Assembly (NCBI GenBank): GCA_964354545.1
Contig: CAYHAE010000001.1
Coordinates: forward strand, 65,190 to 129,189
DNA length: 64,000 bases
Origin: an uncultured Planctomycetia bacterium
Lineage (GTDB): Bacteria > Omnitrophota > Gorgyraeia > 2-01-FULL-45-10 > JAHFGN01
Reading direction: 5' to 3'
Position 1 is the first letter of the stretch. Each line of letters starts with the position of its first letter. Under the pieces are notes generated by a model. It was not told the DNA's origin and searched no databases. It saw only the letters and a list, made by a program, of their open reading frames with translations. The position numbers and the translations under genes were made by a program. Shown here piece after piece: positions 3,956-54,058 of the stretch.

Positions 3956-3978
3956 CCTAACTGGCGAGGTTGAGGAAG

Positions 3979-4233
3979 ATGCCTAAACTAGATGCAAGGT
4001 CATTAGAGCAAGAATTGAGAGCGCTTGTTGCCGAGATAGTGGAGATTGAGCCGGAGAAGATAACACCGGAGGCAAAGTTCGTTGAAGATTTGGGGATGGA
4101 TTCCATGATGGCGCTTGAAATTTTGGCATCGATCGAAAAGAAATATAAATTGAAAATTCCCGATGAGAACCTTACGAAGATAACAAATTTAAACCAGGTC
4201 ATAAAATTGGCGAACGAATTCTTAACTAAATGA
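3979..4233 (+). CDS. acyl carrier protein
   Basis: DLGMDSMMALE phosphopantetheine-attachment motif. It is about 85 aa with an RBS gaggaag upstream. Confidence 0.8.
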   Translation: MPKLDARSLEQELRALVAEIVEIEPEKITPEAKFVEDLGMDSMMALEILASIEKKYKLKIPDENLTKITNLNQVIKLANEFLTK

Positions 4234-4249
4234 AACGAAGTAGGAAGCG

Positions 4250-6038: not shown

Positions 6039-6039
6039 A

Positions 6040-21305: not shown

Positions 21306-21914
21306 ATGAACTTCAAAGAACTCTATAAAGTTGTAGAGAAGAATAGATATTATGTATTTTCGTTCGAAGACCTGCTCTCTTTTTTCCCACACGAGAGAAG
21401 GGCGACGCTCAAGGAGTCGGTCTATAGATGGAAGATGAAAGGATGGATCTACCCTCTCAAAAAAGGGCTTTACGAGCTAACCTATCCCAAAGATTTCGAT
21501 ATCCCCGATATGTATATTGCCAATAGGCTATATGGCCCTTCTTACATCTCATTGGAAACAGCGCTTTCGAATTGCAGCATTATTCCGGAAGTATCGATGG
21601 CGGTCACTTCCATAACCACAAAACCGACGCGGAAGTTCAAGAATAAGCACGGGCTTTTCATCTATCATACTGTGAAGCCCGCCTCATTTACAGGATACTA
21701 TGTCGAGAGACAGGGTGCTTTTGATATTCTCATTGCCGAACCGGAAAAAGCGCTCATAGATTTTCTATATTTTAATGCATACCGCGACAAAAAGTTTGAC
21801 CTCAAAGACGAACGGCTGGACAGAGGAGTCGTTTCGCGGCTTAATAAGAAGAAACTGCATCGCTACGCCGCCCTCTATAACATCGATCTAAAAGGACTCC
21901 ATGCTTACCTATGA
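21306..21914 (+). CDS. AbiEi-type antitoxin/transcriptional regulator (type IV TA / abortive infection)
   Basis: About 200 aa with an N-terminal winged-helix-like region. The gene overlaps the AbiEii-like gene by 14 nt. Confidence 0.55.
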   Translation: MNFKELYKVVEKNRYYVFSFEDLLSFFPHERRATLKESVYRWKMKGWIYPLKKGLYELTYPKDFDIPDMYIANRLYGPSYISLETALSNCSIIPEVSMAVTSITTKPTRKFKNKHGLFIYHTVKPASFTGYYVERQGAFDILIAEPEKALIDFLYFNAYRDKKFDLKDERLDRGVVSRLNKKKLHRYAALYNIDLKGLHAYL

Positions 21915-22704
21915 TGCGTTGAAAGCGTACGCTCGATCGAGAGGGATGCCACCGACGAAGATGAGAGGTGTTTTACGGGAGTACCTCCAGGTTCTTATAT
22001 TGAAGGAGATGTATAAAACCGGAGCCGGGAAAAAACTCTATTTCACAGGAGGAACCTACCTGCGGCTTGCCCATAACCTTAAGAGGTTTTCCGAAGACCT
22101 CGATTTTAATACAGCCGGCATAAGGAAGAATGAGTTCGAGGATCTGATCGGCAGAATAAAAGTAGAATTGAAAAGGATAAATATGGAATCCCGGATGCGA
22201 TTTGACCACTGGGACAACATATACGCAGCCCGTCTCATTTTTCCAACCATCGAGGGGGCCTACGGCATAGTGTCGGGCTATTCAAAAAAAGAAGGGATAA
22301 TAATAAAAATCGAGACAAATCGTCCGCGATGGAGAATAAAAAAGGAGACTCATGTCGTATCGGGGTTTGGCGAATTTTACCCATGCATATGCACGGATAA
22401 GGGCGCATTATTTGCGGATAAAATAGATGCGCTCGGCAAAAAGGCGCGCGGCAGGCATGTGTACGATGTAATGTTTATGCTCGCGAATCGCGTTCCCGTC
22501 GACAGGCGTGTTTTGTCATCCTTTGGTATAGATGACGACCCTTTGGATGCGATCGAGAGGAGGATCATGAGTTTCTCGAAGCAGGAGTTGAAAAAGCAGG
22601 CAGAGACCCTGAGGCCTTTTTTGTTCGAGGAAAGCGAGGCGGACTTCGTTGTCAACGCACACACTATTATTCCATCGCTCCTGGAAAAATACAGGAGAAG
22701 ATGA
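21901..22704 (+). CDS. AbiEii/AbiGii-family nucleotidyltransferase toxin
   Basis: Motif YFTGGTYLRL...RFSEDLDFN is characteristic of the DUF1814/AbiEii NTase. Confidence 0.65.
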   Translation: MLTYDALKAYARSRGMPPTKMRGVLREYLQVLILKEMYKTGAGKKLYFTGGTYLRLAHNLKRFSEDLDFNTAGIRKNEFEDLIGRIKVELKRINMESRMRFDHWDNIYAARLIFPTIEGAYGIVSGYSKKEGIIIKIETNRPRWRIKKETHVVSGFGEFYPCICTDKGALFADKIDALGKKARGRHVYDVMFMLANRVPVDRRVLSSFGIDDDPLDAIERRIMSFSKQELKKQAETLRPFLFEESEADFVVNAHTIIPSLLEKYRRR

Positions 22705-22778: not shown

Positions 22779-23168
22779 CTAACTGTGAAACAATCGCAGA
22801 ATGCGTGGGCGCGTGAGGTAAAACACTAAGAGGATGTGATAGAGGATAGAGGAAGCATTTTTTATACCCGTCGGTATATAGGTGAACACCTCGCCTGAGA
22901 AATGGAGAAGATTCATGAATATCAGTATCTTTGTAAGGACTATGTACCCGGAGAAGAAGACGAGCAGAGCCCTCGCCCAGTCCCTGTAATTGAGGAGGCC
23001 GACGCCGAGGATGGCAGACGTGACCGCTGATGCGAGGACAAAGGTGAAGACATTGAACGGCTTCGTCGACAGAGAGAGGACCGAATGGATGATGAGGCTC
23101 GCGAGCGTCGCAAGGCCGATGAATATCTCTATAAGCGCTATCGCCTTCACTGCGAGGCGGTCGTTCAT
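22779..23168 (-). CDS. small polytopic membrane protein, unknown function
   Basis: Three to four predicted TM helices. It overlaps the upstream receiver gene by 4 nt, so the two are probably co-transcribed. Confidence 0.45.
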   Translation of the reverse strand: MNDRLAVKAIALIEIFIGLATLASLIIHSVLSLSTKPFNVFTFVLASAVTSAILGVGLLNYRDWARALLVFFSGYIVLTKILIFMNLLHFSGEVFTYIPTGIKNASSILYHILLVFYLTRPRILRLFHS

Positions 23169-23527
23169 CTCTCCTCCGTGAGTTTTTTGACCGCCTTTAC
23201 GATGTCGGCACGCTCGAAGGGTTTTACGATATAATCGGACGCGCCTGCGCTCACTGCCTCTTGTGCAGTCTCTACGCTTTTGTAGCCGCTCGTAACCAAG
23301 ATCTTAATATTCGGCCGTATCGTTTTCAGCTCCCGCATCGTCTCGATCCCATCCATCCGAGGCATCTTTATATCCATTATCACAATATCAACAGGCGCTT
23401 TCTTCATGATATCTATGGCTTCCTTGCCTCTTGTTGCAAATGAAAGCTCATACTCTTTTTCGAGGATCAATTTTAAAGATTCCCTGATGCCTTCTTCATC
23501 GTCGCAAATGAGGATTCGTTTCTTCAT
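23165..23527 (-). CDS. single-domain response regulator (CheY-like receiver)
   Basis: Motifs ICDDEE and VIMDIKMPRMDG. Confidence 0.8.
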   Translation of the reverse strand: MKKRILICDDEEGIRESLKLILEKEYELSFATRGKEAIDIMKKAPVDIVIMDIKMPRMDGIETMRELKTIRPNIKILVTSGYKSVETAQEAVSAGASDYIVKPFERADIVKAVKKLTEER

Positions 23528-23568: not shown

Positions 23569-24120
23569 CTACAGCATAGGCGGGCTTACGACGCAGATAA
23601 GACGCGCCTCAGACGTCCCTACATTTTTGAAATAGTGTGATACTGATGAGTCGAAGTAGAGCGTATCGCCTTTGTTTAAGGTATAATTCTTGGCACCAAT
23701 CACGACCTCGACTTTTCCGGTAACGACATACACGAACTTCTCCACACCCTTCTTGTTCTCTTCCGTATGGGTAACGCCCTTAGGTTCGAGTCTGACCATG
23801 ATCGGCATCATCTTTTTATCCAGGACCTTCGGCGTCAGCATCTCTGATATCGACTTGTTGTCGTGGACAAAAATGTCTGTCCTCTCGGATGCCGTCTGAA
23901 TAATGGGATTGCTTTGGGAAGGGGAGAGGTCCTGATAGAGCTCAGGGAGCGTAATACCAAGGGCAGCGCAGATCGCCGTGTGTGATTCCAGCGTACCCGT
24001 CATCTTATTGTTTTCTATACGGCTTAACGTCGCGAGCGCAACACCCGATTCCCTTGAGAGCTCAAGGAGGGTGAGCCCTTTTTGTTTGCGTAAGTTACGA
24101 ATTCGTTCTCCGATCTTCAT
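23569..24120 (-). CDS. XRE-family HTH transcriptional regulator with C-terminal cupin domain
   Basis: N-terminal IRNLRKQKGLTLLELSRESGVALATLSRIE HTH. The C-terminal half has a cupin-like beta-barrel pattern. Confidence 0.75.
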   Translation of the reverse strand: MKIGERIRNLRKQKGLTLLELSRESGVALATLSRIENNKMTGTLESHTAICAALGITLPELYQDLSPSQSNPIIQTASERTDIFVHDNKSISEMLTPKVLDKKMMPIMVRLEPKGVTHTEENKKGVEKFVYVVTGKVEVVIGAKNYTLNKGDTLYFDSSVSHYFKNVGTSEARLICVVSPPML

Positions 24121-24410: not shown

Positions 24411-24439
24411 TTGACAAAAAGTGAAATATATGTTATGCT
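24411..24439 (+). promoter_or_regulatory. sigma70-like promoter (TTGACA, 17 nt spacer, TATGCT) for the giant gene
   Basis: Consensus hexamers read directly. Confidence 0.45.
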
Positions 24440-24677: not shown

Positions 24678-27600
24678 ATGGACAGAATGAGGTTTTTCCC
24701 TTTGACCAAAATCATCTCGATAGCGCTCGTCTTTACCCTGCTTAATCAGCAGATACTTTTTGCCGCGGATTACTCCTACGGGATTCCGGTCGAAAACGAA
24801 AAGAACCGCTCAGGCTTTATGTCCGTGGATGAGCTGGATAAGGCCCAGCGTCGCCAAGAGGAGCTTATAGCGAGGCTCCAGGCATCTCTTGATAGTAAGC
24901 TCTCAGGAGGCGTGGGGGATGAAAGTGAGTGGACGCTCCAAAGGAAGAGCGGAACCTCATCCGAAGGGCAGGACTCTGCGGTCACGCCATCGGCACAAGA
25001 CCAGACAGTGCCTCTTGAGGTTTCTCAAGCGGAGATCACCGTGACGACCGCAGCAGGTGATCATATCGCATATTCCGGTGGTGCGATCGCGCGGATCGAG
25101 CAACCGAACGGCACTATCATCGAAGATGTCGTACTGACGCCTACAGGCGAACTTGAACGTGGGCTCATCCGATTCGTGGACGGCGGCGTGCTTACGATAG
25201 AGGGGGGACGGGCATGCTCGTATTTGGGTCCAGACGGTACCGCTACCCACTATCGTCAGGATGGGCTGGTCGATTCGGAAGTCACACCTGACGGCCTTGT
25301 ATCATATTACTCATACCTCTTTGATGACGCAGGGTCGATTGCGCGAACGACTATAACCAGGCCCGAGGAGATCATCGAGTACGACGAATCAGGTAGGCTC
25401 TCGAAGGTCACAAAGCTTGATGGCACGGAGATCGGGTATGAGAACGGCATAATCTCTCAGATGACGAAAGGAGACGGGTCGAAGTATGTCTTTGGCAGGA
25501 TATTGAACGGTCCTGATATAGAGGTAAAAATCGTTACCTATTTTAATAATTCAGGGTACCGGGTTGACTTCGACAGCGTATACAACGTGGTCTCGGTTAC
25601 ATCGCCCTCCGGTTCTTTCACGAAATACGGACATGATCGCACGCCGCTCTACACGCGAAAAGACAATGCGTTGATTGCATACGACAACACCGGCCAGATA
25701 GCATATGCGATCTGCGGCGTTACTGGCTTTGATGGCACATACCGGCAAGGCCAGGATGGATATATAGCGGTCCCGCTCGCGACCATTGACGAGCTTGCGC
25801 GCGCTATAGAAGATCTAGATAGTGCGGCACGGGCTCTCGCAGATGCCGAAGATGCATGCGCAAAACGGCAACTCGAGCTTACCGAAGCAATGCAGTTTTC
25901 AGCACAGACCTTCCAAGCATATCAGGAAGCGGACACTTCGGCCCAGCAGGCCGAGACTGCGCGGCGCGCAGCTGAAGCAGCTCTTATGAGTACACTCGTT
26001 GACGTAGAAACACAATTCGCGTACGGAGACGACGTTACGGAGATTGAGGACCAGAAGGTCGTGTTGAGAGAACAATTTGGGATCTTCAATACGACCCTTT
26101 GGTACAGGACAAGTTCGGCGTACGCACAATGTACTTCGGGCAGACTCTTCCTTTGCGGGACAGGCACCGACACGCGAGCCCATGTCCATTATCAAAAGAC
26201 ATTCGGCGAATACACATTTGCCCGGATGGGATTCGACTTCAAAGTCGATTCGCTCACCGGATCTTTTAAGGCAGGACTTCAATCCGCGTCTTCGAGTACC
26301 TCCTTCGGGAACTCGCTTCAGACAGCATGCATCGAGGTCCGCGAAGGCAAGATCTGTATTGACATTGTCCAGGGCCAGCTTGAGAACCAGCCGACGGCGG
26401 TACTGTTACCGAAGGTCAATACGGACTACTCATGCCTATTTGAGTTGAAGAACGGGTATTTAAATATCTATGTCTGGGAGAAGGAAGAAGTAAGGCCTGC
26501 GGAGGCGCTCTATTCATTTCGTACGCAAAACTGGCCCGGCCTGCGGCCCTTTTTTGAAGTCCGCTCGGGATGTGCATGGGTGGGCAATGTTATGTTGCAC
26601 GCGCCGCTTGATGATCGGATATATGATGTAAAATCGCAGCTCGCAGGACGAATGTCGTATCACGACGATTATGCCACAAGATATGAGTATAGACAGGCTG
26701 GCACATCAACGCTAACTGATCTCGATACATTCAATCGGTTGACCAGACTCTGGGAATCAGGCAGCAGTGTAACATCCGGTCGGGCAAATGTCAGTTTGAG
26801 CGGACTCCGAATGAGGTCGTATCTGCCGCGAACGATTGACCAGACCTATTCGTTCGATTTTGCTCTTGGTACAGTTTATTCAAATGCACGGGCAGGGCTC
26901 GAAGGGAAGGAGGCCACAGGAAACGGATATCTCAGGTTTGTCGTGCAATCAGGTAGATTGTCGGTTGTGACTGTGTGCAACGACCACGAAAAAACAGTGG
27001 CGGTTTCACCGGAGCAGTTTCTGCCTCTCCAGCAGTACACCGCTCAATTTGAGGTAAAGGCAGGCGCTATAGACGTCTACGTATGGAGAAAAGGGGATGA
27101 CCGGCCAGCTATTCCGCTATACAGCTTCACAGATCCTTCATGGAGCGCCCTGCGGTTCTACGCGAAAACAGACAGCGGTCGCTTTGTCATCGATGAATTC
27201 TCCCGTACACAAACATGCGGCGCAACCGGCCAGGAAGCGGATACTGTGGTTGCGCACCTGCGCGATATGTTCGACGCTGAGCGATCGGCGATCGTAAACC
27301 GCGAGGATGCTCGCGGTCGCTATGAGGCAGCTCTCACACAAGAGGGGCAGGCTAAAGATGCACTCACTATCGCGGAGAATGGGCACGCATCTGCGCTTAC
27401 GCAAGAAGAGCAGGCGCTGCATGCTCTGGAAGGTATTAACGGCGCCTTGAATGTGCCAAGGGTTATCCCCGATCAGCCTCTTTTCTACGAGACCTGCGAT
27501 CGCGTGATCCAAGACATGCCGGCAGTTGTGCTATATATAAATGAGAATTTCGCGTCCGAGGCCGGGATTTCCTACGTCACATATTGGCAGAATGGTCTCC

Positions 27601-30600
27601 CGAAAGAGGCGTGCAAGTTCGACGGCTCGACCGTGACCTTCGATGAAGAAGGCGCGCTCCTCTCGTTCAAGGGCCAGATCATCGATGCTTCGTACGCAAG
27701 CATCCTCGGGCCTTGCAAGTCTGTTACGGGGGAAAAAGTCGTTAGGGATGGGCTGACGCGGATCTATGACGCCCGCGGAAAGCTCTCCGCGCTGATGACC
27801 GGCGAAAATACTCACATCGAATATCGCGAGAATGAGATCGTTTCGATCGCGACCGGGGATGGTGTCAAGCGTCTCTACGAAGCTGGTACGCTGACAGAAC
27901 TGATCGATAAGGACGGGGCGACCTTCTCGTTCGACGCGTCTGGAAAGGCAGTGAGGTCGGTAGACCGTTTCGGGAACGTCTACGATTACGCATATGGGTA
28001 CGATCCCGTCGACGGAGAGGAGACGGTGATCATCTTCGAGGAGACCACGGGCCTCAGGCGGTTCTATAAGAGCGGGGTTCTCTACCATACAGAAGACCTT
28101 GCAGGGGTTACCTCTGACAATCTTTATGATGCGGACGGACGGCTCACCGAGGTGCTTATAAAGAATTATGATACCGTGGTCGGCCGATATTCGTACACAT
28201 ATCTTGATAGCGGAAAGACCGGCGTTAGTGATCTCCTCGGCAACACGAGAACCTATGCCTGTGACGGGAGACTGGAAACCTTGGTCGACAAAGATAACAA
28301 TGTCTTCCAATACACCTATCCGGATTCCGTGACGACCCGGTTGGATTGGGTGCCGTACGAGGCGCAACAGGCGCCGGCAGCAGATTTTGTGATCGCGCAG
28401 GAATTCGTGAACGATGCTCTTCGTAAAGTCGTCAGGGCAGATGGAACAGTAACGACCTATCGGGTTGGTGGAGACCTCGATTCTATACAGGAGGGAAGCG
28501 GGAAGACCATCATTCAGTATCTCTACGATGAAGCGGGAGAGCTTGAAGGTGTAGATCTCAGGGGAAGCCGCGAAGACCTATCGCGAGCCGTACAAGATGC
28601 GCGCACTGAGATCGAGGCGGAAAAGAATAATACCATTAAAAAGATTGAGACTCAAAGAGATAGTGCGTTGTCAAATATATTTAACCAATATGTTCCACAA
28701 TTTCTTGCTCTATTCAATCAACTATCTACGCTTTCCGATCAATTGAGTGCATTGACAGGCCATAGTTATGGCATTTTTTTCGAAGTCACCATCGCTCAGC
28801 ATATAGCGGGTTTGGATCCGGCAGATCCAAACATTCCCATAATAAAAAGTCTCGTGCAGCAACTACAGGATGTAAATAATCAGCAACTTGCGCTTCTTGC
28901 GCAGAAGGCTGCAGAGCAAAAACCGATCGAAGACGAGGCGACGCGGCAAATTGCCGAGATAGAGCGTCAGGCAGATCAAGAGGTCGCAAAGATCGATGCC
29001 CAAATTGGGCTACTCTCACTAGATATATCGAGGAGAGAAGGAGCCGCCTTCGTCCTTTACTATCACCGAAAGATACTTGGCAGAGACCTTAGCAGACCAG
29101 AAGCGGATGCCTGGGTATCACAACTGTCGGCAGACAAGCAGAAATTCACCCGTGAGGAGGTCGTAGGAACGATACTCTCTTCGGCAGAATATGCCGACCG
29201 GAAGGCATGGGTTGCGTCTATTAAGAAGTCAGTTCGCCATGCGCTCGAGGGATATCTGTTGATGACAGAGCAGGAAAAGGACACGTTCCTGGTTATGCTC
29301 GGCCTCTCTCGACAGGATGCGGCACGACTCAATCGTTATGATGTCGAAAAGATCCTCTCCTGGATCGATTCTCAGGGACTCCATTTCGGGCAATCGGCAT
29401 TCCTCGCGCTCAAGAACGTACTCGAAGCGAACGGCGTGGTGTGCGATCTTGAGGATCTTGCGATAAATGCCATCCTTATCGATATACTATCCGGCGCGAT
29501 CGATTCGCTCGCAAAGGGCGATCTCGCGCTTTCTATGTTCGCGCTGAGTACCTGTGCAAGAACCAAGGGCGTAGCGCTCTTCAATGCGAAACTCATATGG
29601 GAAGATATTGCCCAGCTTCCGTCGCCCAGGTTCATTGCGCTCGTCGATGGCAATCACTATATCGTCGTCACCGGCGTCGAAGGTGATGAGGTCTATTACA
29701 GGGAAGAGAACAGAGGGCCAGCCGGTACCGACGAGGTGATGACGAAAGACGAATTCATTAAGACGTGGTCGGGATATGCGATTGTAGTACAGGCCAAAGG
29801 TCTTTCTCTTACTGAACCCATCCCGGAACCTATCGCGTCGAAACTGATAACTTCCCAAGAAGCTCGCGCTGTTAAGGGTGCCTGTATAGGTCTCTTTGTT
29901 GCATTCGTCATTTGGGCCGTCTCGGCCGTCCTTACGGTTGTTGCGACTGTCGCATCAGTGATAGCGACAATCGTAACAACTGTGGTGAGTGCAATCGCTG
30001 CGGTTGTGTCGCAGTTCGCGACCGTAATTACCGCGCTTGGTGCGAAGCTTGTAAGTGGTATTTCCACGGCGTTTACAGGGATCGGGCAAATGATAGGCAG
30101 TGTGGCAGGGGCTTCCATTGCGAGCATGGCCACTGCCGCGTTGAAGACGGTGGCGAGCATTGGTTTGAGCTTTGGCATCTCAGCGGGTTTGAAAGCGCTC
30201 GGTGTCAACACAACCATTACAAATCTGACGAGTGCGTTTCTTACGGGAGGGATCCTTGGCCTGATCAATCCTGTTGCAGGTATAAGCATGCTAGGATCGT
30301 TTATGATGGAAGGGATGAAATATGCCACGATTGCCGGCATCAATGAAGCCGGCGTTGCGCTCAGGCTCGACCCGGCCATCACGAACCTCATGGCGATCAC
30401 CTCAGGGGCCCTCGTCGGCGGCGTCTGGCGCGGCAACATTGGACAAACTCTCGTTACCATCGCGCCGAGCGTCGCATCCGAGGCCGCATATATAGGTATG
30501 CAGAGCGTTGGCAACCTCCTCGGCATCGATCCGCGGATATCCTACCTTGCAGGAGTGGGTATTAGAAGCACCCTAAATGCGGGCCTGACCCACGACTTTA

Positions 30601-33068
30601 TGCCAGATGTTATCTGGGGTGGGGTGCAGAGTGGGCTGCTACGGGGGATTACCTCAATAGGCATTAACTATGCTACTCAGGAATTGGGCATAAACCCGTT
30701 TATTGCCAACCTGTCGGCTGCTGCCATGGCAGGTGGCATAGAAGGCCTGTTAGAAGGCAGGAATCCCATAGAAGGCATATTTGACACTTATTTTAGAGCA
30801 GGAATAGGCCTATTGACGCTAGGGGGCGATGGAGGCAATAATCCATGGCTTAGAGCTGCTTATATATCCCAAGTATTAGATTTTAGTCAAATTATACAGG
30901 AAAGGGGTATAGTTAATGCGCTTGATACATATGCAACAGGCTTCTTACACCAACAGACGATTAATGAGATATGGAAGCAAGGAGGCATTGCCGAATTGCT
31001 TACAAAACCCAATCAGATTGAAATAACGACCAATAATAAAGGCGAAGTTGTGAAGCGAATATACACAATGGTGATTAATTCGAATTCCGATAAACTTATA
31101 AGTAACTATATAGACCTGTCACCTACCTACGATATGCTTGTCGGATACAGAGAGGGCAATATTATCACCCATTGTGAATTCGTGATTGGTCCAGATGGCA
31201 GACCTCAATTGAAGAATGGCGAAAAGGAGATTCTTGGTTCAGACGGTTCAAAGAAAGTAGACTATGTTGAAAACTTTAACCTAACAAAGAGAGATATTAT
31301 TGATCCAAGTGGCAATAAGACAGGTTATTATATCCCAGTCGAAGGAACAAACTCCATTATAATTGGAGAAAATGACCAGATAATAAGTGGTAAATTCGTG
31401 TCTTTGGTGAGCAACTATAATATAACATCTAAAGATGGCTCTCTATATGACTATACAGGGTCAGAATTGATAGGTATAGATAGTTATTTTCTTGAAGATT
31501 ATCTTGGATTGGACGAAGACGATGATTTACAGCTTGATGATATCTCGATTAACATCAGTAAATTAGATTTAGGATATGATGTATCAGTAGGGTTAGTTGA
31601 TCCTACCAAGCAAAGCGATTTAGACGCGCTTAGTGCTGTATACAAGGTAGCCTCATTTATAAAAGATACATATTTACCCGCTGGCTTTATTACAAGTGAA
31701 GACCTTAATTTGGATGGATATGGTTATATAGAGCACTCTTATGGTAACAATGTCTATGCTGTTATTGACATAGGGAGTGGCTATAAACCAGTAGAAATGA
31801 ATTATAATGGATTACACTTAATAGGGGATAGAGACAAGGTTGGCATCGGGCAGAGTCTAAATCCAAATGGTTATACGAGCGTTATTAATGGAGAAGTGCG
31901 ATACGATATAGATGCAAATACATATTTAACAGCCAGAATTGATAATGGCTTACCGACATCTATCAAATATAATGGTTCTACCGATATGGTTCAATATGAA
32001 GGTTCATATTTTACAGATGGAACGTTAGATAGTGGTGAGTTATTAATAGCAGGACGGGATGTTATTATAATTCAAGACGGAATTCCTACTTTGAGGTATA
32101 ATGTAAACAATCCGAGCGGTTCGCTTACAAGTATTGACTGCGAGGGGTTAATATCGCTTTTTACAAATATACAAATACAGAAAGGTCAGGTTAGCTTACC
32201 CGGTATTTACAACGCTCTTATGAATTCACCGGAAGCAGATTTTACAGCATATGCAAATGAAATATTTAATGCTCGAAACCTGTTAAGCTCAGATGGCATG
32301 CTTTCGTATAATGAGGCAATAGCTATTTATTGTAATAGCGAAAATGCCATGAATGCCGAAGAGTTTCTGAATATATCTAAATTATATTATACATTGAGAG
32401 ACCCAGTAGCCGTTTACCTAAATCAATTCTTCCATCAAGTAACTGATGAAGTCAGAACAAAATTTGACGATTCTTATGCACAACTATCCGGATATAACTC
32501 TTTAGATGGCTTCTCTTATATTATGGAGAGCGGTTCCAAAACAGCGGGCATAGGTCAAATTAACAAAGACGGCCTAAGGGTTTATTCTATTATAGGAGTA
32601 AGTGCAAATATGAGCGAAAAGATATTCAACCCCTATGTGAAATTTTTTGTTAATTTTACAACAAATAATGAAGTAACCGATATGCTTCAACCTTTAGTCG
32701 ATTATAAAACTATACCCGGTATAAATCACGCTTATCAGCCCGAAGATATTTTCCGCAATCCAACAAGTGATAAGCAGGTGTGGAATGTCGAATTTGATGA
32801 CATTGAAGTTAATTCTACATTATCACCAGTAAAGGATTATATGCATGTTGACTATGCACGAAATACAGACCATCCTTATCATGAGATTTTTGTTGCATTA
32901 TCAGCGGCTGCTGAAATTGCAGTGTATGATGGCGGAGAAACATTCAAGTCAATTATTATGAAAGCAAAAGGATTTACCGATGGCAGCTCTCTAAATCAAT
33001 ATCTTCAACAGAATGGTAGGAAAATAGACATAGGTATCGATGACAATGATAGATGGAAGCAGAATTAG
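24678..33068 (+). CDS. giant secreted YD-repeat (Rhs-like) protein (2797 aa) with signal peptide, an internal tandem roughly 250-aa duplication, a coiled coil, a papain/C39-like region, a Gly/Ala/Ser-rich hydrophobic region and a compositionally distinct C-terminal region
   Basis: Signal peptide MDRMRFFPLTKIISIALVFTLL. YD-type repeats are present (YDESGRL, YDNTGQI, YDARGKL, YDADGRL, YxYLDSGKTG). Duplicated modules are NIYVWEKEEVRPAEALYSF and DVYVWRKGDDRPAIPLYSF. A DGNHYIVVTGV motif is present. The last roughly 2.2 kb are AT-rich. Confidence 0.75.
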   Translation: MDRMRFFPLTKIISIALVFTLLNQQILFAADYSYGIPVENEKNRSGFMSVDELDKAQRRQEELIARLQASLDSKLSGGVGDESEWTLQRKSGTSSEGQDSAVTPSAQDQTVPLEVSQAEITVTTAAGDHIAYSGGAIARIEQPNGTIIEDVVLTPTGELERGLIRFVDGGVLTIEGGRACSYLGPDGTATHYRQDGLVDSEVTPDGLVSYYSYLFDDAGSIARTTITRPEEIIEYDESGRLSKVTKLDGTEIGYENGIISQMTKGDGSKYVFGRILNGPDIEVKIVTYFNNSGYRVDFDSVYNVVSVTSPSGSFTKYGHDRTPLYTRKDNALIAYDNTGQIAYAICGVTGFDGTYRQGQDGYIAVPLATIDELARAIEDLDSAARALADAEDACAKRQLELTEAMQFSAQTFQAYQEADTSAQQAETARRAAEAALMSTLVDVETQFAYGDDVTEIEDQKVVLREQFGIFNTTLWYRTSSAYAQCTSGRLFLCGTGTDTRAHVHYQKTFGEYTFARMGFDFKVDSLTGSFKAGLQSASSSTSFGNSLQTACIEVREGKICIDIVQGQLENQPTAVLLPKVNTDYSCLFELKNGYLNIYVWEKEEVRPAEALYSFRTQNWPGLRPFFEVRSGCAWVGNVMLHAPLDDRIYDVKSQLAGRMSYHDDYATRYEYRQAGTSTLTDLDTFNRLTRLWESGSSVTSGRANVSLSGLRMRSYLPRTIDQTYSFDFALGTVYSNARAGLEGKEATGNGYLRFVVQSGRLSVVTVCNDHEKTVAVSPEQFLPLQQYTAQFEVKAGAIDVYVWRKGDDRPAIPLYSFTDPSWSALRFYAKTDSGRFVIDEFSRTQTCGATGQEADTVVAHLRDMFDAERSAIVNREDARGRYEAALTQEGQAKDALTIAENGHASALTQEEQALHALEGINGALNVPRVIPDQPLFYETCDRVIQDMPAVVLYINENFASEAGISYVTYWQNGLPKEACKFDGSTVTFDEEGALLSFKGQIIDASYASILGPCKSVTGEKVVRDGLTRIYDARGKLSALMTGENTHIEYRENEIVSIATGDGVKRLYEAGTLTELIDKDGATFSFDASGKAVRSVDRFGNVYDYAYGYDPVDGEETVIIFEETTGLRRFYKSGVLYHTEDLAGVTSDNLYDADGRLTEVLIKNYDTVVGRYSYTYLDSGKTGVSDLLGNTRTYACDGRLETLVDKDNNVFQYTYPDSVTTRLDWVPYEAQQAPAADFVIAQEFVNDALRKVVRADGTVTTYRVGGDLDSIQEGSGKTIIQYLYDEAGELEGVDLRGSREDLSRAVQDARTEIEAEKNNTIKKIETQRDSALSNIFNQYVPQFLALFNQLSTLSDQLSALTGHSYGIFFEVTIAQHIAGLDPADPNIPIIKSLVQQLQDVNNQQLALLAQKAAEQKPIEDEATRQIAEIERQADQEVAKIDAQIGLLSLDISRREGAAFVLYYHRKILGRDLSRPEADAWVSQLSADKQKFTREEVVGTILSSAEYADRKAWVASIKKSVRHALEGYLLMTEQEKDTFLVMLGLSRQDAARLNRYDVEKILSWIDSQGLHFGQSAFLALKNVLEANGVVCDLEDLAINAILIDILSGAIDSLAKGDLALSMFALSTCARTKGVALFNAKLIWEDIAQLPSPRFIALVDGNHYIVVTGVEGDEVYYREENRGPAGTDEVMTKDEFIKTWSGYAIVVQAKGLSLTEPIPEPIASKLITSQEARAVKGACIGLFVAFVIWAVSAVLTVVATVASVIATIVTTVVSAIAAVVSQFATVITALGAKLVSGISTAFTGIGQMIGSVAGASIASMATAALKTVASIGLSFGISAGLKALGVNTTITNLTSAFLTGGILGLINPVAGISMLGSFMMEGMKYATIAGINEAGVALRLDPAITNLMAITSGALVGGVWRGNIGQTLVTIAPSVASEAAYIGMQSVGNLLGIDPRISYLAGVGIRSTLNAGLTHDFMPDVIWGGVQSGLLRGITSIGINYATQELGINPFIANLSAAAMAGGIEGLLEGRNPIEGIFDTYFRAGIGLLTLGGDGGNNPWLRAAYISQVLDFSQIIQERGIVNALDTYATGFLHQQTINEIWKQGGIAELLTKPNQIEITTNNKGEVVKRIYTMVINSNSDKLISNYIDLSPTYDMLVGYREGNIITHCEFVIGPDGRPQLKNGEKEILGSDGSKKVDYVENFNLTKRDIIDPSGNKTGYYIPVEGTNSIIIGENDQIISGKFVSLVSNYNITSKDGSLYDYTGSELIGIDSYFLEDYLGLDEDDDLQLDDISINISKLDLGYDVSVGLVDPTKQSDLDALSAVYKVASFIKDTYLPAGFITSEDLNLDGYGYIEHSYGNNVYAVIDIGSGYKPVEMNYNGLHLIGDRDKVGIGQSLNPNGYTSVINGEVRYDIDANTYLTARIDNGLPTSIKYNGSTDMVQYEGSYFTDGTLDSGELLIAGRDVIIIQDGIPTLRYNVNNPSGSLTSIDCEGLISLFTNIQIQKGQVSLPGIYNALMNSPEADFTAYANEIFNARNLLSSDGMLSYNEAIAIYCNSENAMNAEEFLNISKLYYTLRDPVAVYLNQFFHQVTDEVRTKFDDSYAQLSGYNSLDGFSYIMESGSKTAGIGQINKDGLRVYSIIGVSANMSEKIFNPYVKFFVNFTTNNEVTDMLQPLVDYKTIPGINHAYQPEDIFRNPTSDKQVWNVEFDDIEVNSTLSPVKDYMHVDYARNTDHPYHEIFVALSAAAEIAVYDGGETFKSIIMKAKGFTDGSSLNQYLQQNGRKIDIGIDDNDRWKQN

Positions 33069-33083
33069 TAAAATGAGGACAAA

Positions 33084-33674
33084 ATGAAAAATAAAATATT
33101 GTTAATTTTGGCAATACTTTTAGCAATAATTATCATAGCAGGATTTATGATATTTGAGTTTTTACCAAAGACTTATTGGTCACCGTCATGGCAATATGGC
33201 CTACGTGAGCAAAAAAAGCATCAAGTGACAGAGGAGTTTATCAACTTATCCACGGACGAGCTGATAAAACAAATCGATTTAAATAAAGATCGGAAACAAT
33301 ATAAAGGTGAAAAAGGAACTTTTAAATCTATAAAATATGAGGTTAGCATTAGTTTATTAGGCTCAAGAACCGATGAAAAAGCTTTATCGAAGCTCAAAGA
33401 AATTATTCTAACCTTTCCTGAAGGTCAAAAGTGGACTGCAATTTCTGCTATTCGTAAGAGCAAAAATAAAGCCATGATTCCAGTTCTTTGTGAGGCACTT
33501 AAAAAGCACACGTTGCATCATACTGACGACCTTATAGTTAAAGCCCTTGTAGATATTGATGACTCAGTTGCACTTGATTGTCTTATTCAAGAAAAAGACA
33601 AGCTTTCATATAGAACCTCTCGTGAGCTAGCAGGAAAAGCCATTGAAAAATGGAGCCACGAGAAAGCTCAATGA
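33084..33674 (+). CDS. membrane-anchored HEAT-repeat-like protein (candidate cognate immunity/accessory protein)
   Basis: N-terminal TM helix. HEAT-like repeats (WTAISAIRKSKNKAMIPVLCEALKK, DDLIVKALVDIDDSVALDCL). It starts 16 nt after the giant gene. Confidence 0.45.
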   Translation: MKNKILLILAILLAIIIIAGFMIFEFLPKTYWSPSWQYGLREQKKHQVTEEFINLSTDELIKQIDLNKDRKQYKGEKGTFKSIKYEVSISLLGSRTDEKALSKLKEIILTFPEGQKWTAISAIRKSKNKAMIPVLCEALKKHTLHHTDDLIVKALVDIDDSVALDCLIQEKDKLSYRTSRELAGKAIEKWSHEKAQ

Positions 33675-33675
33675 G

Positions 33676-33806
33676 AAATCTCCGGGACGGTTACAAAATC
33701 TATCCCTGCCTGCCGGTAGGCAGGCCAGACGCGCCCTAAATTCCATCCCAGACCCATCCCCGAATTTCATCCTATATAGAACCTCCAGGGCGTTTACAAA
33801 TTCTAC
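33676..33806. repeat. cassette-punctuating GC-rich element, copy 1 (with internal hairpin insertion and duplicated head)
   Basis: CTCCGGGACGGTTACAAAATC...CCAGACGCGCCCTAAATTCCATCCCAGACCCATCCCCGAATTTCATCCTATATAGAACCTCCAGGGCGTTTACAAATTC read directly. Confidence 0.7.
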
Positions 33807-33845
33807 AAAATGTAAGGAAGAGAGATTAGAGAGATGTTAAACTAG

Positions 33846-33872
33846 GCAACCCAGGAGGTGGGTTGCTTTTAT
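33846..33872 (+). terminator. rho-independent terminator
   Basis: Hairpin GCAACCCA-ggagg-TGGGTTGC followed by TTTT. Confidence 0.5.
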
Positions 33873-33965
33873 AATTGGTGAAGTCAAATATGAAGATATC
33901 GATTTTATGAAGTAAAAGATGAGAATAGATTGGATGCCAGAAGATATTTTGAGGGTCCTAGAGGG

Positions 33966-34274
33966 TTACTTTTTTCCCTCTCGTGTAAGCCTAAATTCCA
34001 TCGACTTTCTTGCTTCAAAATAGATTTTCGAAATTAACTTATGCCGCTCTTCCACTTCACTTTTGTCCGCGGTAAGCCGACTCAGCTTCTTCAATAGGTC
34101 ACTCTTTTCAAAATCGGGCTTGTTTCTAGGGAATAACCTGGAGTTCGTATCTATCGTTTCAATGCAGATCATCAATCGTAATACCTCAGAGAAGCTTAAA
34201 TCGTACTTTTCTCCAAGGAACTTTATATAATCACTGATCCAGTCCTCAAGAAGCACTTGCTGCCTTTTAAGCAC
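33966..34274 (-). CDS. hypothetical protein (102 aa), reverse-oriented in the cassette region
   Basis: ORF only. Its codon usage fits the AT-rich island. Confidence 0.3.
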   Translation of the reverse strand: MLKRQQVLLEDWISDYIKFLGEKYDLSFSEVLRLMICIETIDTNSRLFPRNKPDFEKSDLLKKLSRLTADKSEVEERHKLISKIYFEARKSMEFRLTREGKK

Positions 34275-34615
34275 AATACCCTCCTTGCTAGTATCATAAT
34301 GATATCAGAAAGCGTTTAACGGCACAATAACAAAATGGCTCATTTATTACACATATTTACTACACACTTTTATTGTTGACAAATAGGTGAATAAATATTA
34401 GGCTATTTATTGTCGGAAGAATCCCATTAGAGAAGATGTTTGATATTAATCAAAAATTATTTAATAACGAGATTAAATATATCTCAATGAGATCTGGAAA
34501 TGAATAAAGTAATTCGCAATAAGATGCTGTGGATTGTGTATTTTTTAGTAGCCCCCGTAATTGCGTTCATATCATTTATAGTTTCAAGAAAAGATTTATG
34601 AAAGGGAGGTATCGT

Positions 34616-35230
34616 ATGCGTAAACTTATAACATGTGGTTTAATTGTTTTGTTTTGTACCTCTATTACAGGTTGCGCTACTATTATGACTGGAACAACAC
34701 AAAAAATACCAGTCTCATCCAATCCGTCTGGCGCTAATCTGCAGGTGGATGGACAGAGTACATATACAACTCCCGTTACGGTGGTTTTGGAAAGAAAAAG
34801 AGACCATATTCTGGTATTTACAAAAGAGGGATACAATCAAGCGACGATAACGATTCTTCATGTCTTAAGCGGAGCAGTGTGCGGAAATATTTTATTAGGT
34901 GGTTTAATTGGATTTGGTGTTGATGCATGCACTGGTGCAATGAATAAATTAGTACCTGAGAATGTTCAGGTTGAACTGCAGAAAGCAGCTCCGGGCGCAT
35001 CTGCCCCAGTCGCAATCAAGGAATTAACCCCCGAAGATAAAATTAACCAGTTAAAAAATATGTACGACAAAGGCATGTTGACTAAAGAGGAATATGAAGC
35101 AAATAAGAAAGTTATATTATATCAAATGTCACAACAGGGAGTACTCGAAGCTCAAGGTGCTGCGGTCACCCAAAATAAACAAGAAAACATAAGTACCCAA
35201 GCGCCGCAGGGTGACTTGGGCACTAAATAA
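34616..35230 (+). CDS. lipoprotein with C-terminal SHOCT domain
   Basis: Lipobox LFCTSITGC. SHOCT-like C-terminus INQLKNMYDKGMLTKEEYEANKKVILYQM. RBS GGGAGG. Confidence 0.55.
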   Translation: MRKLITCGLIVLFCTSITGCATIMTGTTQKIPVSSNPSGANLQVDGQSTYTTPVTVVLERKRDHILVFTKEGYNQATITILHVLSGAVCGNILLGGLIGFGVDACTGAMNKLVPENVQVELQKAAPGASAPVAIKELTPEDKINQLKNMYDKGMLTKEEYEANKKVILYQMSQQGVLEAQGAAVTQNKQENISTQAPQGDLGTK

Positions 35231-35237
35231 TTACGAG

Positions 35238-35326
35238 AACCTCAGGGACGTTTACAAAATCCATCCCAGACGCGGTCCTAAATTCCATCCCAGCCCCATC
35301 CCCGAATTTCATCCTATATAGAACCA
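35238..35326. repeat. cassette-punctuating GC-rich element, copy 2
   Basis: CTCAGGGACGTTTACAAAATCCATCCCAGACGCGGTCCTAAATTCCATCCCAGCCCCATCCCCGAATTTCATCCTATATAGAACC. Confidence 0.7.
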
Positions 35327-35531
35327 CCTCCTTTCATTATATAAGACGTACGAGGAGCAGGAATTCTTGCAAAAAAAGTATCAAAAGGGACAGGTCTGAG
35401 ATAAAATATGAATACAGGTCTGAGATGAGAAATAGGGATAGGGCTAAGATGAAAAATGATAACAAGTTTAATCTCAAAAATGAAAACGTTCCACAGTTAC
35501 GTTTTCCTATTAATAGTTATGGAAGTATAAT

Positions 35532-36371
35532 ATGCCATTAGTTAGAATACCCAATTCAGAGTCAGATATTCTTACCGCAATTTCTCCAATTCTCGTGTGG
35601 AACGATGATAAAAATCCTCGCATTGTTGGTACAGCAGTTTTGTTAGGGCCTGGATTAGCTTTATCAGTACTGCATGTTATTCAGGATTTTGTTCCTAAAA
35701 ATAAGTGTACAGATGAGATAAATGCTAACGTTGCTATATTCCAAGCCTCATCAGGGGCAGCATGGTATATCAGGAGAGTTTGGGCCACAAGCCATACTGA
35801 TGCTGCTTTCTTGGGTCTTGAGCCTAAAAATGATGCAGCTAAAAATTATAAATGGCACCGCTTTGGAATAAATCTCCATTTACCAAAACCCGGAGAGAAG
35901 ATTTTTGCTGCTGGTTTTCCTTGTTCTAAAATCAACGGTGTTGATGAGGGGCTTACTCAAAAAGGAATAACTGCTATAAAGGTCAATTTAAATCTTCAAA
36001 CTGTAAGTGGAATCGTACAGGAATCACATGGTTCCAAGCACGAAGGCCATTTAGATTTTCCTTGCTTCCAGTGTAATGCAAAATTTGATCCACAAATGAG
36101 TGGAGGGCCAGTTCTGGATGAGAGCGGATATTTGCGCGGCCTTGTATGCACAGGATTTGATTTTGCTGACGCAGGTGAGCCTGTTTCCTTTGCCGCAGGC
36201 ATTATGCCTACTATGGCGATTAAGATTGATAGGTCTTTGCCAAGCCTTGACAAAACTCAGGAATATTATGTTCTTGAATTGGCAAAGAATGGTTTTTTAC
36301 CTGTAATCGGTTATGAAAGAGTTAAAATAACAGAGCTTAAAAATGGGAGGACTAGAATCGAATTGAGGTAA
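35532..36371 (+). CDS. trypsin-like (S1/chymotrypsin-fold) serine peptidase-like protein without signal peptide
   Basis: His in SVLHVIQD, Asp in HTDAAFLGL and Ser in QMSGGPVLD match the His-Asp-Ser order and the GDSGGP-type motif. Confidence 0.5.
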   Translation: MPLVRIPNSESDILTAISPILVWNDDKNPRIVGTAVLLGPGLALSVLHVIQDFVPKNKCTDEINANVAIFQASSGAAWYIRRVWATSHTDAAFLGLEPKNDAAKNYKWHRFGINLHLPKPGEKIFAAGFPCSKINGVDEGLTQKGITAIKVNLNLQTVSGIVQESHGSKHEGHLDFPCFQCNAKFDPQMSGGPVLDESGYLRGLVCTGFDFADAGEPVSFAAGIMPTMAIKIDRSLPSLDKTQEYYVLELAKNGFLPVIGYERVKITELKNGRTRIELR

Positions 36372-36373
36372 TA

Positions 36374-36455
36374 GCCTCCGGGACGCTTACATAATCCATC
36401 CCAGACGCGTCCCTAAATTTTATCCCACAGGTCCTGAGATGAAAAATAGGGATGG
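36374..36455. repeat. cassette-punctuating GC-rich element, copy 3 (compact palindromic form)
   Basis: CTCCGGGACGCTTACATAATCCATCCCAGACGCGTCCCTAAATTTTATCCCACAGGTCCTGAGATGAAAAATAGGGATGGGGCTAAGAT. The arms GGGACGC/GCGTCCC and TCCCTAAATTTTATC/GATGAAAAATAGGGA are inverted. Confidence 0.7.
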
Positions 36456-36895
36456 GGCTAAGATCATTGTTTTATAGAGGAGGTGCAGTGGAGAAGCAAA
36501 AGTCTGTTGGGATAACAATTCTCGGATGGCTCGGTTTCTTGCTAGCCATAGTGAATCTCGCAATTTATATATTTCTTCTTCTTGTTATGGGTATTAGATG
36601 GCAAATAGAAGTGGTTGCCAGATTTCTAAGAGGTAACCCACAGGCGTTAAGTTTAATCTGGACTAATTATTCGCCGTTAGTATTAGGTTTTTTACTAATT
36701 TATATCGGTAGATTCTTATTAAAGAAAGCCAACCTAATATTCATAAAAAATGTAACGGTCACCTACCTTGTGTTAAGCGTTGTCTTTCTATTTATCAATA
36801 TCTCCTCTCTCCTTATGGCTTTCTATAACTTAGCATATTTTGTCTTGCTGTTAATCGTAATAGATCGCCCAAAATTCAAGGAGCAGTTTAAATGA
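36452..36895 (+). CDS. small polytopic membrane protein, unknown function
   Basis: Four hydrophobic helices. It overlaps the next gene by 4 nt. Confidence 0.4.
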   Translation: MGLRSLFYRGGAVEKQKSVGITILGWLGFLLAIVNLAIYIFLLLVMGIRWQIEVVARFLRGNPQALSLIWTNYSPLVLGFLLIYIGRFLLKKANLIFIKNVTVTYLVLSVVFLFINISSLLMAFYNLAYFVLLLIVIDRPKFKEQFK

Positions 36896-38673: not shown

Positions 38674-38710
38674 CACCCCTTGCAGCTTATCGTTTTATAG
38701 CGTGACCCAG

Positions 38711-53743: not shown

Positions 53744-53764
53744 AAGATCAGTTCTTTCACAACT

Positions 53765-54040: not shown

Positions 54041-54058
54041 ATTACAACGGAGGAAGAT

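Follow-up and report, generated by a model that had tools for sequence, protein, structure and literature searches.

Bacteria of the phylum Omnitrophota are uncultivated, mostly ultra-small and suspected of being predators or parasites, and almost nothing is understood of the large proteins which they secrete. One of these proteins raises the question treated here: why does a giant gene change its composition abruptly before its end, and what do the amino acids (aa) encoded beyond the change do? The gene lies in a stretch of 64,000 nucleotides (nt), called the window below, which is taken from contig CAYHAE010000001.1 (positions 65,190 to 129,189; assembly GCA_964354545.1) of an uncultured Planctomycetia bacterium placed by GTDB in the Omnitrophota. 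It encodes 2796 aa and not 2797, as a first-pass annotation of the bare sequence had counted, and the protein collection holds an identical 2796-aa protein from an NCBI source. That annotation read the change of composition as the mark of a swapped C-terminal toxin domain. The swapping of the tail together with its partner gene is borne out by the relatives of the gene, but the change of composition does not mark its boundary, which falls at aa 1955. The reading which we prefer, and to which we give a probability of about 0.7, is that the protein is a polymorphic effector exported by Sec, whose tip is an esterase or lipase and whose immunity partner is HEAT-like; it would be Rhs-like in its logic without being an Rhs protein.

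An exchange boundary inside the coding sequence

Along the giant gene the GC content falls from 0.55 to 0.35. When only the third codon positions are counted (GC3), the change point lies at codon 2030 (nt 30768; support interval, codons 2012 to 2050), with a GC3 of 0.568 before it and 0.299 after it. Its log-likelihood ratio reaches 82, and in 200 shuffles of the codons the ratio never exceeded 8.5. The abrupt shift which had been announced near nt 30800 is therefore real and leaves the C-terminal 766 aa encoded by AT-rich DNA. Because GC3 itself drops, it is a shift in synonymous positions and codon usage and not only in amino-acid content. In most relatives too, the 3' end drops to a GC3 of about 0.3, whatever the GC3 of the trunk (0.45 to 0.7). 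The features needed for what follows are these:

24678 to 33068, plus strand: giant open reading frame (ORF) of 2796 aa with an ATG start, made of a trunk and a very probably exchangeable 3' cassette
30540 to 30599, plus strand: hyperconserved 60 nt encoding the SYLAGVGIRS... part of the invariant motif DPRISYLAGVGIRS, with the core ATCCTACCTTGCAGGAGTGGG; cassette boundary
30540 to 33674, plus strand: very probably exchangeable cassette (aa 1955 onward), consisting of a conserved 5' segment, a linker, a tail and a partner gene
30768 to 38699, no strand: AT-rich island with a GC3 of 0.28 to 0.39, against 0.57 in the trunk and 0.72 to 0.80 in the genes beyond 38.8 kb
30975 to 31451, plus strand: pre-tail module "linker-1" (aa 2100 to 2258), common to the closer relatives whatever tail follows
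31452 to 32174, plus strand: N-terminal part of the tail (aa 2259 to 2499), specific to type A, beta-rich in a low-confidence model
32175 to 33065, plus strand: domain modelled with an alpha/beta-hydrolase fold (aa 2500 to 2796)
33084 to 33674, plus strand: partner gene (196 aa; N-terminal membrane anchor and alpha-helical HEAT-like domain), candidate immunity protein

Homologues are rare: when 5.8 billion proteins were searched by word index, the only relative to come up beside the protein itself was P0002 (3987 aa), which matches RHS_repeat, Laminin_G_3 and Peptidase_C39. Further relatives were found by pattern scans with the conserved block: 11 loci in the GTDB species representatives, all of them Candidatus Omnitrophota or metagenome-assembled genomes (MAGs) labelled "uncultured Planctomycetia", and 40 loci in JGI metagenomes; every family locus with a record title is an Omnitrophota or "uncultured Planctomycetia" MAG. 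Full-length members measure 2,700 to 4,400 aa. Among the eight which we scanned, six match Peptidase_C39 and five RHS_repeat, and single members add Laminin_G_3, FG-GAP or ILEI modules. As these modules differ between members, the N-terminal half is a variable region of the adhesion type. Three family members (L030, L035 and L044) come from a single metagenome, on Ga0082335 contigs of 360 to 830 kb, so that there may be several paralogues per genome or community.

Aligned with its nearest full-length relatives (L008 and P0005), the protein has an identity of mostly 18 to 40%, with peaks of 50%, up to aa ~1950, where the identity jumps to 60 to 94%. Among genes sharing the same class of cassette 5' end, whose trunks are about 30 to 40% identical as proteins, nucleotide identity is 55 to 72% over the 60 nt preceding the boundary and 80 to 98% over the 60 nt following it. 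This comparison of sequences places the exchange boundary at aa 1955, inside the invariant motif DPRISYLAGVGIRS. In at least 12 cassettes with readable upstream DNA, homology begins at one identical nucleotide, within the codons of DPRI/SYLAGVGIRS (the slash marks the boundary), and two more cassettes (L049 and L060) sit at the ends of contigs. The DNA which precedes the boundary in these cassettes is non-coding, with in-frame stops, and shares the short motif CTCTATGCCAGCTAA/TCCTACCT; the 60-nt site also has the variant CTCTATGCCAGCTAATCCTACC. The window holds one exact copy of the core (30539 to 30559), with neither a second copy of the core site nor an orphan cassette. On the right-hand side, the nucleotide match to the cassette of L002 stops within the 3' end of the partner gene, and we found no motif resembling a site at that boundary.

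We considered codon 2030 as the recombination boundary and rejected it in favour of codon 1955. The two positions differ because the cassette opens with a conserved segment of normal GC content, 57 to 75 codons long and common even to cassettes with different linkers, and the change point of GC3 comes after it.

The exchange is clearest in two alleles of one locus. L002, which encodes P0003 with a tail of type A (the type of the window), and L021, which encodes P0007 with a tail resembling type B, come from the same three JGI samples. The two agree in every one of their first 120 nt, and on the right they have a common flank with a PhdYeFM/ParE pair, in which identity is 98.6% over 776 nt. They differ only in what lies between, tail and partner, which are unrelated. 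Taken together, the eight contigs L002 to L005 and L021 to L024, from five JGI samples and with two tails, start at one and the same nucleotide (equivalent to nt 31105 of the window), which is probably a branch point of the assembly graph leading out of the sequence common to the alleles.

Silent cassettes are present in L018, L039, L040, L042, L045, L049 to L051, L053, L054, L056, L057, L059, L060 and L063. In the array of L039, the 3' end of the main gene and its TPR-like partner are followed by a silent cassette with a partner of its own. That cassette is found again in L040, 100% identical from the boundary over 3156 nt, but there an ORF6N gene and two genes for tyrosine recombinases precede it. 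An 80-nt repeat (GAATTCGGGGGACACAATACTTAATTATGG...) stands after the cassette modules, in L039 at 3157 to 3236 and ~6525 to 6604 and in L040 at 5962 to 6041 and 9017 to 9096.

Hence new tails arrive as units of tail and partner which join the trunk inside DPRISYLAGVGIRS, and this accounts for both the low GC3 of the 3' end and the diversity of the tails. That the window gene itself consists of a conserved trunk bearing an exchangeable cassette of tail and partner is, we believe, very probable.

How the units are exchanged is a separate matter. In L045, L051, L054 and L059, homologous pairs of overlapping tyrosine recombinase genes end 80 to 100 nt before the boundary; such a pair is also found upstream in L018/L052, the distance being a little greater in L018 and L040. 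In L018 a gene for a protein with Schlafen/AlbA_2, HATPase_c_4 and winged helix-turn-helix domains (3664 to 5016) lies between the recombinase pair and the silent cassette. There are no tyrosine recombinase genes in the window or in the full-length loci with their 10-kb flanks, and we saw no inverted arrangement of a cassette. We tentatively propose that the exchange might be site-specific, driven by the tandem tyrosine recombinases, with the ~60-nt site (30540 to 30599) as attachment or crossover site. We regard this as possible rather than probable, the possibility being substantial because related loci pair a fixed boundary with recombinase genes. A mobile element carrying the recombinases would then bring a promoterless 3' end and fuse the new tip to the resident trunk, and the old tip would be left silent right behind the recombinase genes, in the arrangement of L045, L051, L054 and L059. 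With the site-specific elements of the Tn554 type, which have two tandem tyrosine recombinases, and with cassette systems such as integrons, shufflons and hsdS switches, our loci share the fixed crossover point inside a coding sequence, the promoterless 3' cassettes and the paired tyrosine recombinase genes ahead of the site. The exchange of toxin tips is generally credited to homologous recombination, a view on which a nucleotide-precise boundary beside paired recombinase genes bears. If the exchange is indeed site-specific, we would be dealing with a "toxin-tip integration system", in which a mobile element gives a giant secreted effector a new function by targeted replacement of its 3' end.

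The tails and their partner genes

Distant members are homologous to the window protein as far as aa 2102, close ones as far as aa ~2256, and the divergent tail proper begins at aa ~2258. The linker-1 which precedes it bears the invariant pattern GxREGN..HC...GPD..P.LKNGE and has no match in Pfam. The C-terminal region had been expected to vary among homologues, and it does: the 19 tails obtained in the first searches make up about six groups with little or no relation to one another (types A, B, C, L015, L013 and P0008). Type A comprises the window, P0003 and a handful of fragments.

The tail of the window is a rare one. It has no sequence match in Pfam, NCBIfam or the PDB, and PDB sequence searches with two tail profiles and one trunk profile gave nothing significant. 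A HMMER search with the tail over 1.84 billion representatives found eight proteins, none of them annotated; in one of these (P0010), family trunk sequence precedes the match to the tail. A profile search of the 5.8 billion proteins gave five further relatives of the tail. The AlphaFold2 model of the whole 547-aa tail is poor (pLDDT 53), and its Foldseek comparison with the PDB is not significant (best E 0.1, a PETase). Modelled separately, the last 297 aa adopt an alpha/beta-hydrolase fold.

Profile-profile comparison relates the last ~290 aa to the tails of type C (probability 92.6%, E 4.5e-7, 218 columns), pairing IMESGSK with AYSGDG and MHVDYAR with DHLDYS. In the joint alignment of types A and C, a Ser-Gly pair and a His are invariant, with an N-[DE] position between them. 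In the window these are Ser2618 (nt 32529 to 32531, in IMESGSK), Glu2665 (nt 32670 to 32672) and His2723 (nt 32844 to 32846, in MHVDYAR), conserved and in the canonical order, the nucleophile elbow being E-S-G and not G-x-S-x-G. These three residues would form the catalytic triad. Since the joint alignment keeps S-G, H and N-[DE], we read aa 2500 to 2796 as a divergent serine hydrolase, our best guess being an esterase or lipase activity.

Hydrolase signatures are also found in other tails. The tail of L013 matches Peptidase_C92, an amidase family (E 2e-9). That of L015 matches Abhydrolase_8 and DUF676 and has a GHSAG elbow; its match to Tle3 is weak and does not reach the cutoff. The tail of L010 is distantly related to type B, and these tails have GxSxG or GxSxD. 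Profile comparison showed no relation among types B, C, L015 and P0008.

In every member a small gene lies at most 56 nt from the stop codon of the giant gene or overlaps it, and its product is membrane-anchored or multi-spanning. In the window this is ORF 33084 to 33674, which begins after 15 nt. The first-pass annotation saw in it a candidate for a cognate HEAT-repeat membrane protein. The hydrophobic helix is there and the partners cluster as the tails do, but the match to HEAT_2 stays below the Pfam cutoff (22 bits, cutoff 27.7), and hhalign gives a probability of 41% when the window partner is compared with the HEAT_2 partners of type B. In types A, B and C, the partner carries one anchor at its N-terminus and then an all-helical domain of HEAT or TPR-like type. 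Within a tail type, partners are related (73% identity between the window and L002, 58% between L007 and L008, 24 to 51% in type C), and those of different tail types do not match one another. The clustering of the partners follows that of the tails with one exception, P0007.

From this architecture and the comparison of genomes, tail and partner are probably an antagonistic effector and its immunity protein. Helical-repeat immunity proteins have precedent. The most serious alternative is that the giant protein is a surface adhesin with an esterase or lipase tip serving for feeding or attachment to a host, and that the partner is a foldase or chaperone, as Lif is for LipA; the diversity of the tails would then reflect substrate range, host range or antigenic variation. 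In its favour, most tails are alpha/beta-hydrolases, and relatives carry the adhesion-type modules Laminin_G_3, FG-GAP and ILEI in their N-terminal regions. Lipase-specific foldases have an N-terminal anchor and then a helical domain, and the single anchor and all-helical domain of the partners of types A, B and C agree with that plan. The giant proteins of Omnitrophota have moreover been proposed to be adhesins or surface-degrading factors (PMC10066038; bioRxiv 10.1101/2023.11.21.568195). However, no partner scanned with Pfam matched the lipase-chaperone family, ORF 33084 to 33674 yielding only its weak HEAT_2 match, and the partners of L013, L006, L010 and L021 are small multi- or single-pass membrane proteins, typical of immunity proteins. 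Silent cassette arrays and the swapping of enzyme and partner as a unit are hallmarks of toxin-immunity systems. We therefore consider the adhesin with a foldase unlikely, and keep the polymorphic effector with its immunity partner.

The trunk and a proposed working

The trunk and the remaining signals of the transcription unit are made up as follows:

24411 to 24439, plus strand: weak sigma-70-like promoter match TTGACA-17-TATGCT with TG, 5' of the start codon
24678 to 24767, plus strand: Sec-type signal peptide (aa 1 to 30, MDRMRFFPLTKIISIALVFTLLNQQILFAA), from hydropathy; kept in P0002 and in the family consensus
25005 to 25757, plus strand: YD/RHS-like block 1 (aa 110 to 360), marginal
26232 to 27179, plus strand: two diverged tandem beta-rich modules (aa 519 to 631 and 726 to 834), from internal comparison
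27795 to 28697, plus strand: YD/RHS block 2 (aa 1040 to 1340), from the RHS_repeat profile
29043 to 29198, plus strand: DUF4214-like segment (aa 1456 to 1507), 21.5 bits, Pfam cutoff of 23.2 not reached
29382 to 29795, plus strand: C39-like papain-fold peptidase domain (aa 1569 to 1706), Pfam Peptidase_C39
29847 to 29882, plus strand: double-glycine-leader-like motif ITSQEARAVKGA (aa 1724 to 1735), kept in 13 of 13 rows of the family alignment
29883 to 30770, plus strand: hydrophobic region rich in Gly, Ala and Ser (aa 1736 to 2031), from hydropathy; kept in all family members
33844 to 33868, plus strand: terminator-like hairpin after the two-gene unit, from a consensus scan

Sigma-70-like sites are no more numerous in the region than expected from shuffled sequence. 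Several modules of the trunk had been described in the first-pass annotation. The signal peptide stands as described. The YD repeats do lie in two blocks: scanned alone, block 2 exceeds the Pfam cutoff of 22 for RHS_repeat (26 bits, E 1.2e-5), and block 1 is marginal, since it does not reach it (20 bits, E 9e-4), though it is 40% identical to aa 9 to 329 of P0002. A scan of the full-length protein against Pfam and NCBIfam gave no match to RHS_repeat, C39 being the sole result. Between block 1 and the tandem modules lies a stretch rich in Ala, Glu and Gln. The tandem modules, which carry IYVWEKEEVRPAEALYSF and VYVWRKGDDRPAIPLYSF and match no Pfam family, are 29% identical over 116 aa (pairwise E 7e-12). 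The duplication reported in that annotation is genuine, but it is old, and its period is about 205 aa instead of the roughly 250 aa first given.

The Peptidase_C39 match extends over aa 1617 to 1706 (29.3 to 33.5 bits, Pfam cutoff 22; E 8.5e-7 to 4e-8). Of the Cys...His pattern that had been noticed in this segment, the His is retained: that of DGNHYIVV (His1660, in NH[YF]) is invariant in the 13-row family alignment, and an acidic residue follows it after 13 to 17 residues in the rows which we inspected. The Cys is not, as the family does not conserve the Cys residues which the window protein has here. The C-terminal F...W.G signature of C39 is present, and a conserved HFGxSAF segment opens the helix where C39 peptidases bear their catalytic Cys. 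In the column which we infer to be that of the nucleophile, assigned by pattern and not by profile alignment, Ser stands in 12 of the 13 rows and Cys in L010. The nucleophile is thus probably Ser rather than Cys, and the triad would be Ser1573 (nt 29394 to 29396), His1660 (nt 29655 to 29657) and Glu1676 or Glu1677. A sequence search of the PDB with the C39 profile gave sub-threshold matches (E 0.14 to 0.76) to LahT150 and to the cysteine-peptidase toxins StbD/CdiA, in the His half only. A near-identical in-frame insert (...GAPEGGDEAIS...) occurs within and just after the C39-like domain, twice in P0002 (aa ~2996 to 3012 and 3074 to 3090; L001) and once in L012, and looks like a small repeat tolerated in loops.

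Between the C39-like domain and a hydrophobic stretch of 55 aa, the motif ITSQEARAVKGA has the family form h-[ST]-x-x-[EQ]-[AE]-x-x-[IV]-[KR]-G-[SAN]. It agrees with the published recognition pattern of double-glycine leaders, Leu(-12)...Glu(-8)-Leu(-7)...Gly-Gly/Ala/Ser (PMC6363468). The candidate cleavage point is after Gly1734-Ala1735, and self-processing there would free a C-terminal fragment of about 1,060 aa with the glycine-zipper region, the linker and the hydrolase. The ~300-aa hydrophobic tract of Gly and Ala, correctly picked out in the first-pass annotation, has 29% Gly plus Ala and only 26 charged residues out of 330 (aa 1731 to 2060); its maximum Kyte-Doolittle value is 2.63, and it contains 17 small-xxx-small-xxx-small motifs. 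It opens with the 55-aa stretch (aa 1736 to 1789), uncharged and extremely hydrophobic, whose length suits a helical hairpin.

The working which we propose is the following. The giant protein would be exported by Sec, and its N-terminal modules, the two short YD/RHS blocks and the two beta-rich modules, would bind the surface of a target. The C39-like domain would cut after Gly1734-Ala1735, just ahead of the hydrophobic region, and the freed C-terminal fragment would insert in a membrane through its glycine-zipper region. In this way the hydrolase could reach lipids or esters in the envelope of a competitor, host or prey, while the partner, its soluble domain facing the periplasm, would neutralise the hydrolase in the producer. 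In this scheme aa 1 to 1954 would be the conserved trunk, and aa 1955 to 2796 with the next gene the exchangeable cassette.

Several points weigh against this reading. Most tails are hydrolases of one fold, and because of this a part of the "polymorphism" could be the fast divergence of a single enzyme and not the shuffling of domains. The co-variation of tails and partners is imperfect, since the type B-like tail of P0007 is paired with a multi-pass membrane protein and not with a HEAT protein. With other alignments, hhalign relates types A and C more weakly (68%, E 5e-5). The Peptidase_C39 match spans positions 44 to 130 of the 133 of the profile, that is, the His half; as the Pfam and PDB alignments both cover that half only, the substitution of Ser for Cys and the cleavage site are derived from patterns in the alignment. 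No route across the outer membrane is evident. Finally, the YD blocks are probably too short for a shell of the Rhs type.

This last point leads to the comparison with known systems. With the Rhs/YD toxins (Rhs of E. coli and Dickeya, WapA of B. subtilis), our family shares YD repeats, a conserved body, a variable tip of lower GC content, a small cognate gene directly downstream and silent orphan cassettes behind the main gene (L039); with WapA it also shares the Sec signal. It differs from Rhs by lacking the aspartyl autoprotease motif DPxGL, by having only two short YD blocks, hence probably no enclosing shell, by its junction motif DPRISYLAGVGIRS, by the C39-like peptidase and the 300-aa hydrophobic glycine-zipper region which stand between repeats and tip, and by orphan cassettes which start at one nucleotide, often beside tyrosine recombinase genes. 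That the protein is simply a diverged classical Rhs or CdiA toxin, or something like a phage tape-measure protein, could be argued from the RHS_repeat matches and because Rhs and CDI systems also have variable tips and orphan cassettes; tape-measure proteins, too, have glycine-rich hydrophobic regions. But the window protein has no DPxGL, PxxxxDPxGL or VENN motif, in keeping with the absence of an Rhs DPxGL core which had been remarked at the outset. The looser patterns DPxG[LWFIM] and PxxxxDPxG are absent from it as well, and sporadic and unconserved in the relatives. No family of the Rhs core, TPS, FHA, PAAR or VgrG appears at E<=1 in Pfam or NCBIfam, the YD-type sequence totals just ~550 aa in two separated blocks, and the ORFs scanned near the giant gene include neither phage genes nor a CdiB-like neighbour. 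Having no Rhs core and no DPxGL, the protein is not a member of the Rhs family, and it is no CdiA or T6SS effector either; we judge an origin from any of the three classes named above very improbable. The logic of the effector which we propose is nevertheless that of the polymorphic toxins of the Rhs and CDI types, and it fits a published template.

For the signal-peptide ("T2SS") class, Zhang et al. (2012; PMC3482391) describe a succession of RHS repeats, a releasing peptidase, a pre-toxin domain, a Tox-ABhydrolase tip and an Imm-HEAT partner. Every element of this template has a counterpart here, the linker standing for the pre-toxin domain. In that paper C39-type domains count as toxin domains (Tox-PL-C39), the releasing peptidases named in the legend of Figure 2 do not include C39, and the term "glycine zipper" does not occur.

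The C39 domains of the bacteriocin ABC exporters (PCAT, ComA, LahT) and of the HlyB type share with ours the Pfam match, the His and acidic residues, F...W.G and a double-glycine-like sequence. Here, by contrast, Ser stands for Cys at the presumed nucleophile position in all rows but one, and the domain sits within its presumed substrate, after a Sec signal, where the "leader" would be 1,735 aa long. It is not fused to an ABC transporter, and no ABC transporter domain was found in the giant protein or in the neighbouring ORFs scanned. The Tle/Tli pairs of the type VI secretion system (T6SS) likewise have an alpha/beta-hydrolase domain with Ser and His and a partner predicted to face the periplasm. 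They differ in that here there are no VgrG, PAAR or T6SS genes, and delivery rests on the Sec signal and the protein's own trunk. The family shares its phylum, C39 and the adhesion-type modules with the giant C39 proteins of Omnitrophota, in which C39 domains lie near signal peptides or transmembrane segments and, according to a published proposal, divide the protein into pieces (West-Roberts et al. 2023 preprint; 2026 complete-genome preprint). Those giants measure 10,000 to 147,000 aa, far from the 2,700 to 4,400 aa found here, and exchangeable tips with partners have not been described for them.

In the literature searched, neither this family nor such a use in Omnitrophota is described. 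The word "toxin" is absent from the main text of PMC10066038, and "polymorphic toxin" from both Omnitrophota preprints. The reading thus gives the phylum a concrete effector system, with a swappable hydrolase tip, a partner, a candidate self-processing and a region for membrane insertion. It adds to the polymorphic toxins a body plan that has no Rhs core, no T5, T6 or T7 secretion signal and no PAAR. It also suggests a C39-fold peptidase which may use Ser and act on its own polypeptide, perhaps releasing a membrane-active fragment at an internal double-glycine site.

The AT-rich island and the neighbouring genes

Within the AT-rich island lie the last 2.3 kb of the giant gene, the gene of the HEAT-like partner, a PEGA-SHOCT gene, a trypsin-like gene, a 147-aa ORF and the BamE-TPR gene. 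One could suppose that the shift of composition is incidental, due to a horizontally acquired AT-rich island or to a chimera of the assembly, with a C-terminus that has no modular role. The AT-rich stretch does run 5.6 kb past the gene, as far as nt 38699, and takes in genes unrelated to it, and the window has a second AT-rich island between 4.3 and 9.2 kb; yet this explanation is hardly tenable, as the reading frame is continuous, most of over 15 independent assemblies likewise have a trunk that ends in a low-GC3 tail, the junction is the most conserved block of the protein, and an identical protein is on record.

That second island (4250 to 9208, GC3 0.27 to 0.36) contains genes for a ketoacyl synthase, a nitroreductase, a flavin amine oxidase and an acyltransferase-methyltransferase fusion. 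It adjoins genes of the fatty-acid or polyketide type with a normal composition.

The neighbours which the window shares with L008 are a 7TM-GAF histidine kinase, a receiver protein, a HTH-cupin regulator and the BamE-TPR gene; like the homologues of the giant gene, they point to an origin in the Omnitrophota. In the window there are three paralogous HisKA_7TM-GAF histidine kinases on the plus strand (9222 to 11357, 16833 to 18905 and 19081 to 21162), and on the minus strand a receiver-only response regulator (23165 to 23527) and the HTH-cupin regulator (23569 to 24120). Homologues of the kinase and of the receiver are found near the giant gene in L008, L010 and L017, and of the HTH-cupin regulator in L008 and L017. 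These genes may form a conserved regulatory neighbourhood.

The BamE-TPR gene (36892 to 38673, plus strand), lipoprotein-like, has a 50% identical homologue in L008 (14051 to 15283), which directly follows the HEAT partner gene there, in DNA that is likewise AT-rich; it could be an accessory of the effector system. Between the partner gene and the BamE-TPR gene lie the genes for the PEGA-SHOCT protein and for the trypsin-like serine peptidase (34529 to 36371, plus strand).

Some 2 kb ahead of the giant gene, the gene for an AbiEii-type nucleotidyltransferase toxin (E 2e-16) and the 202-aa ORF which overlaps it on its upstream side (21306 to 22704, plus strand) are probably a type IV toxin-antitoxin pair. 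Further away, a cobalamin riboswitch (Rfam RF00174, 68 bits, E 1e-14) occupies 53752 to 53962 on the plus strand, just 5' of ORF 54035 to 56128.

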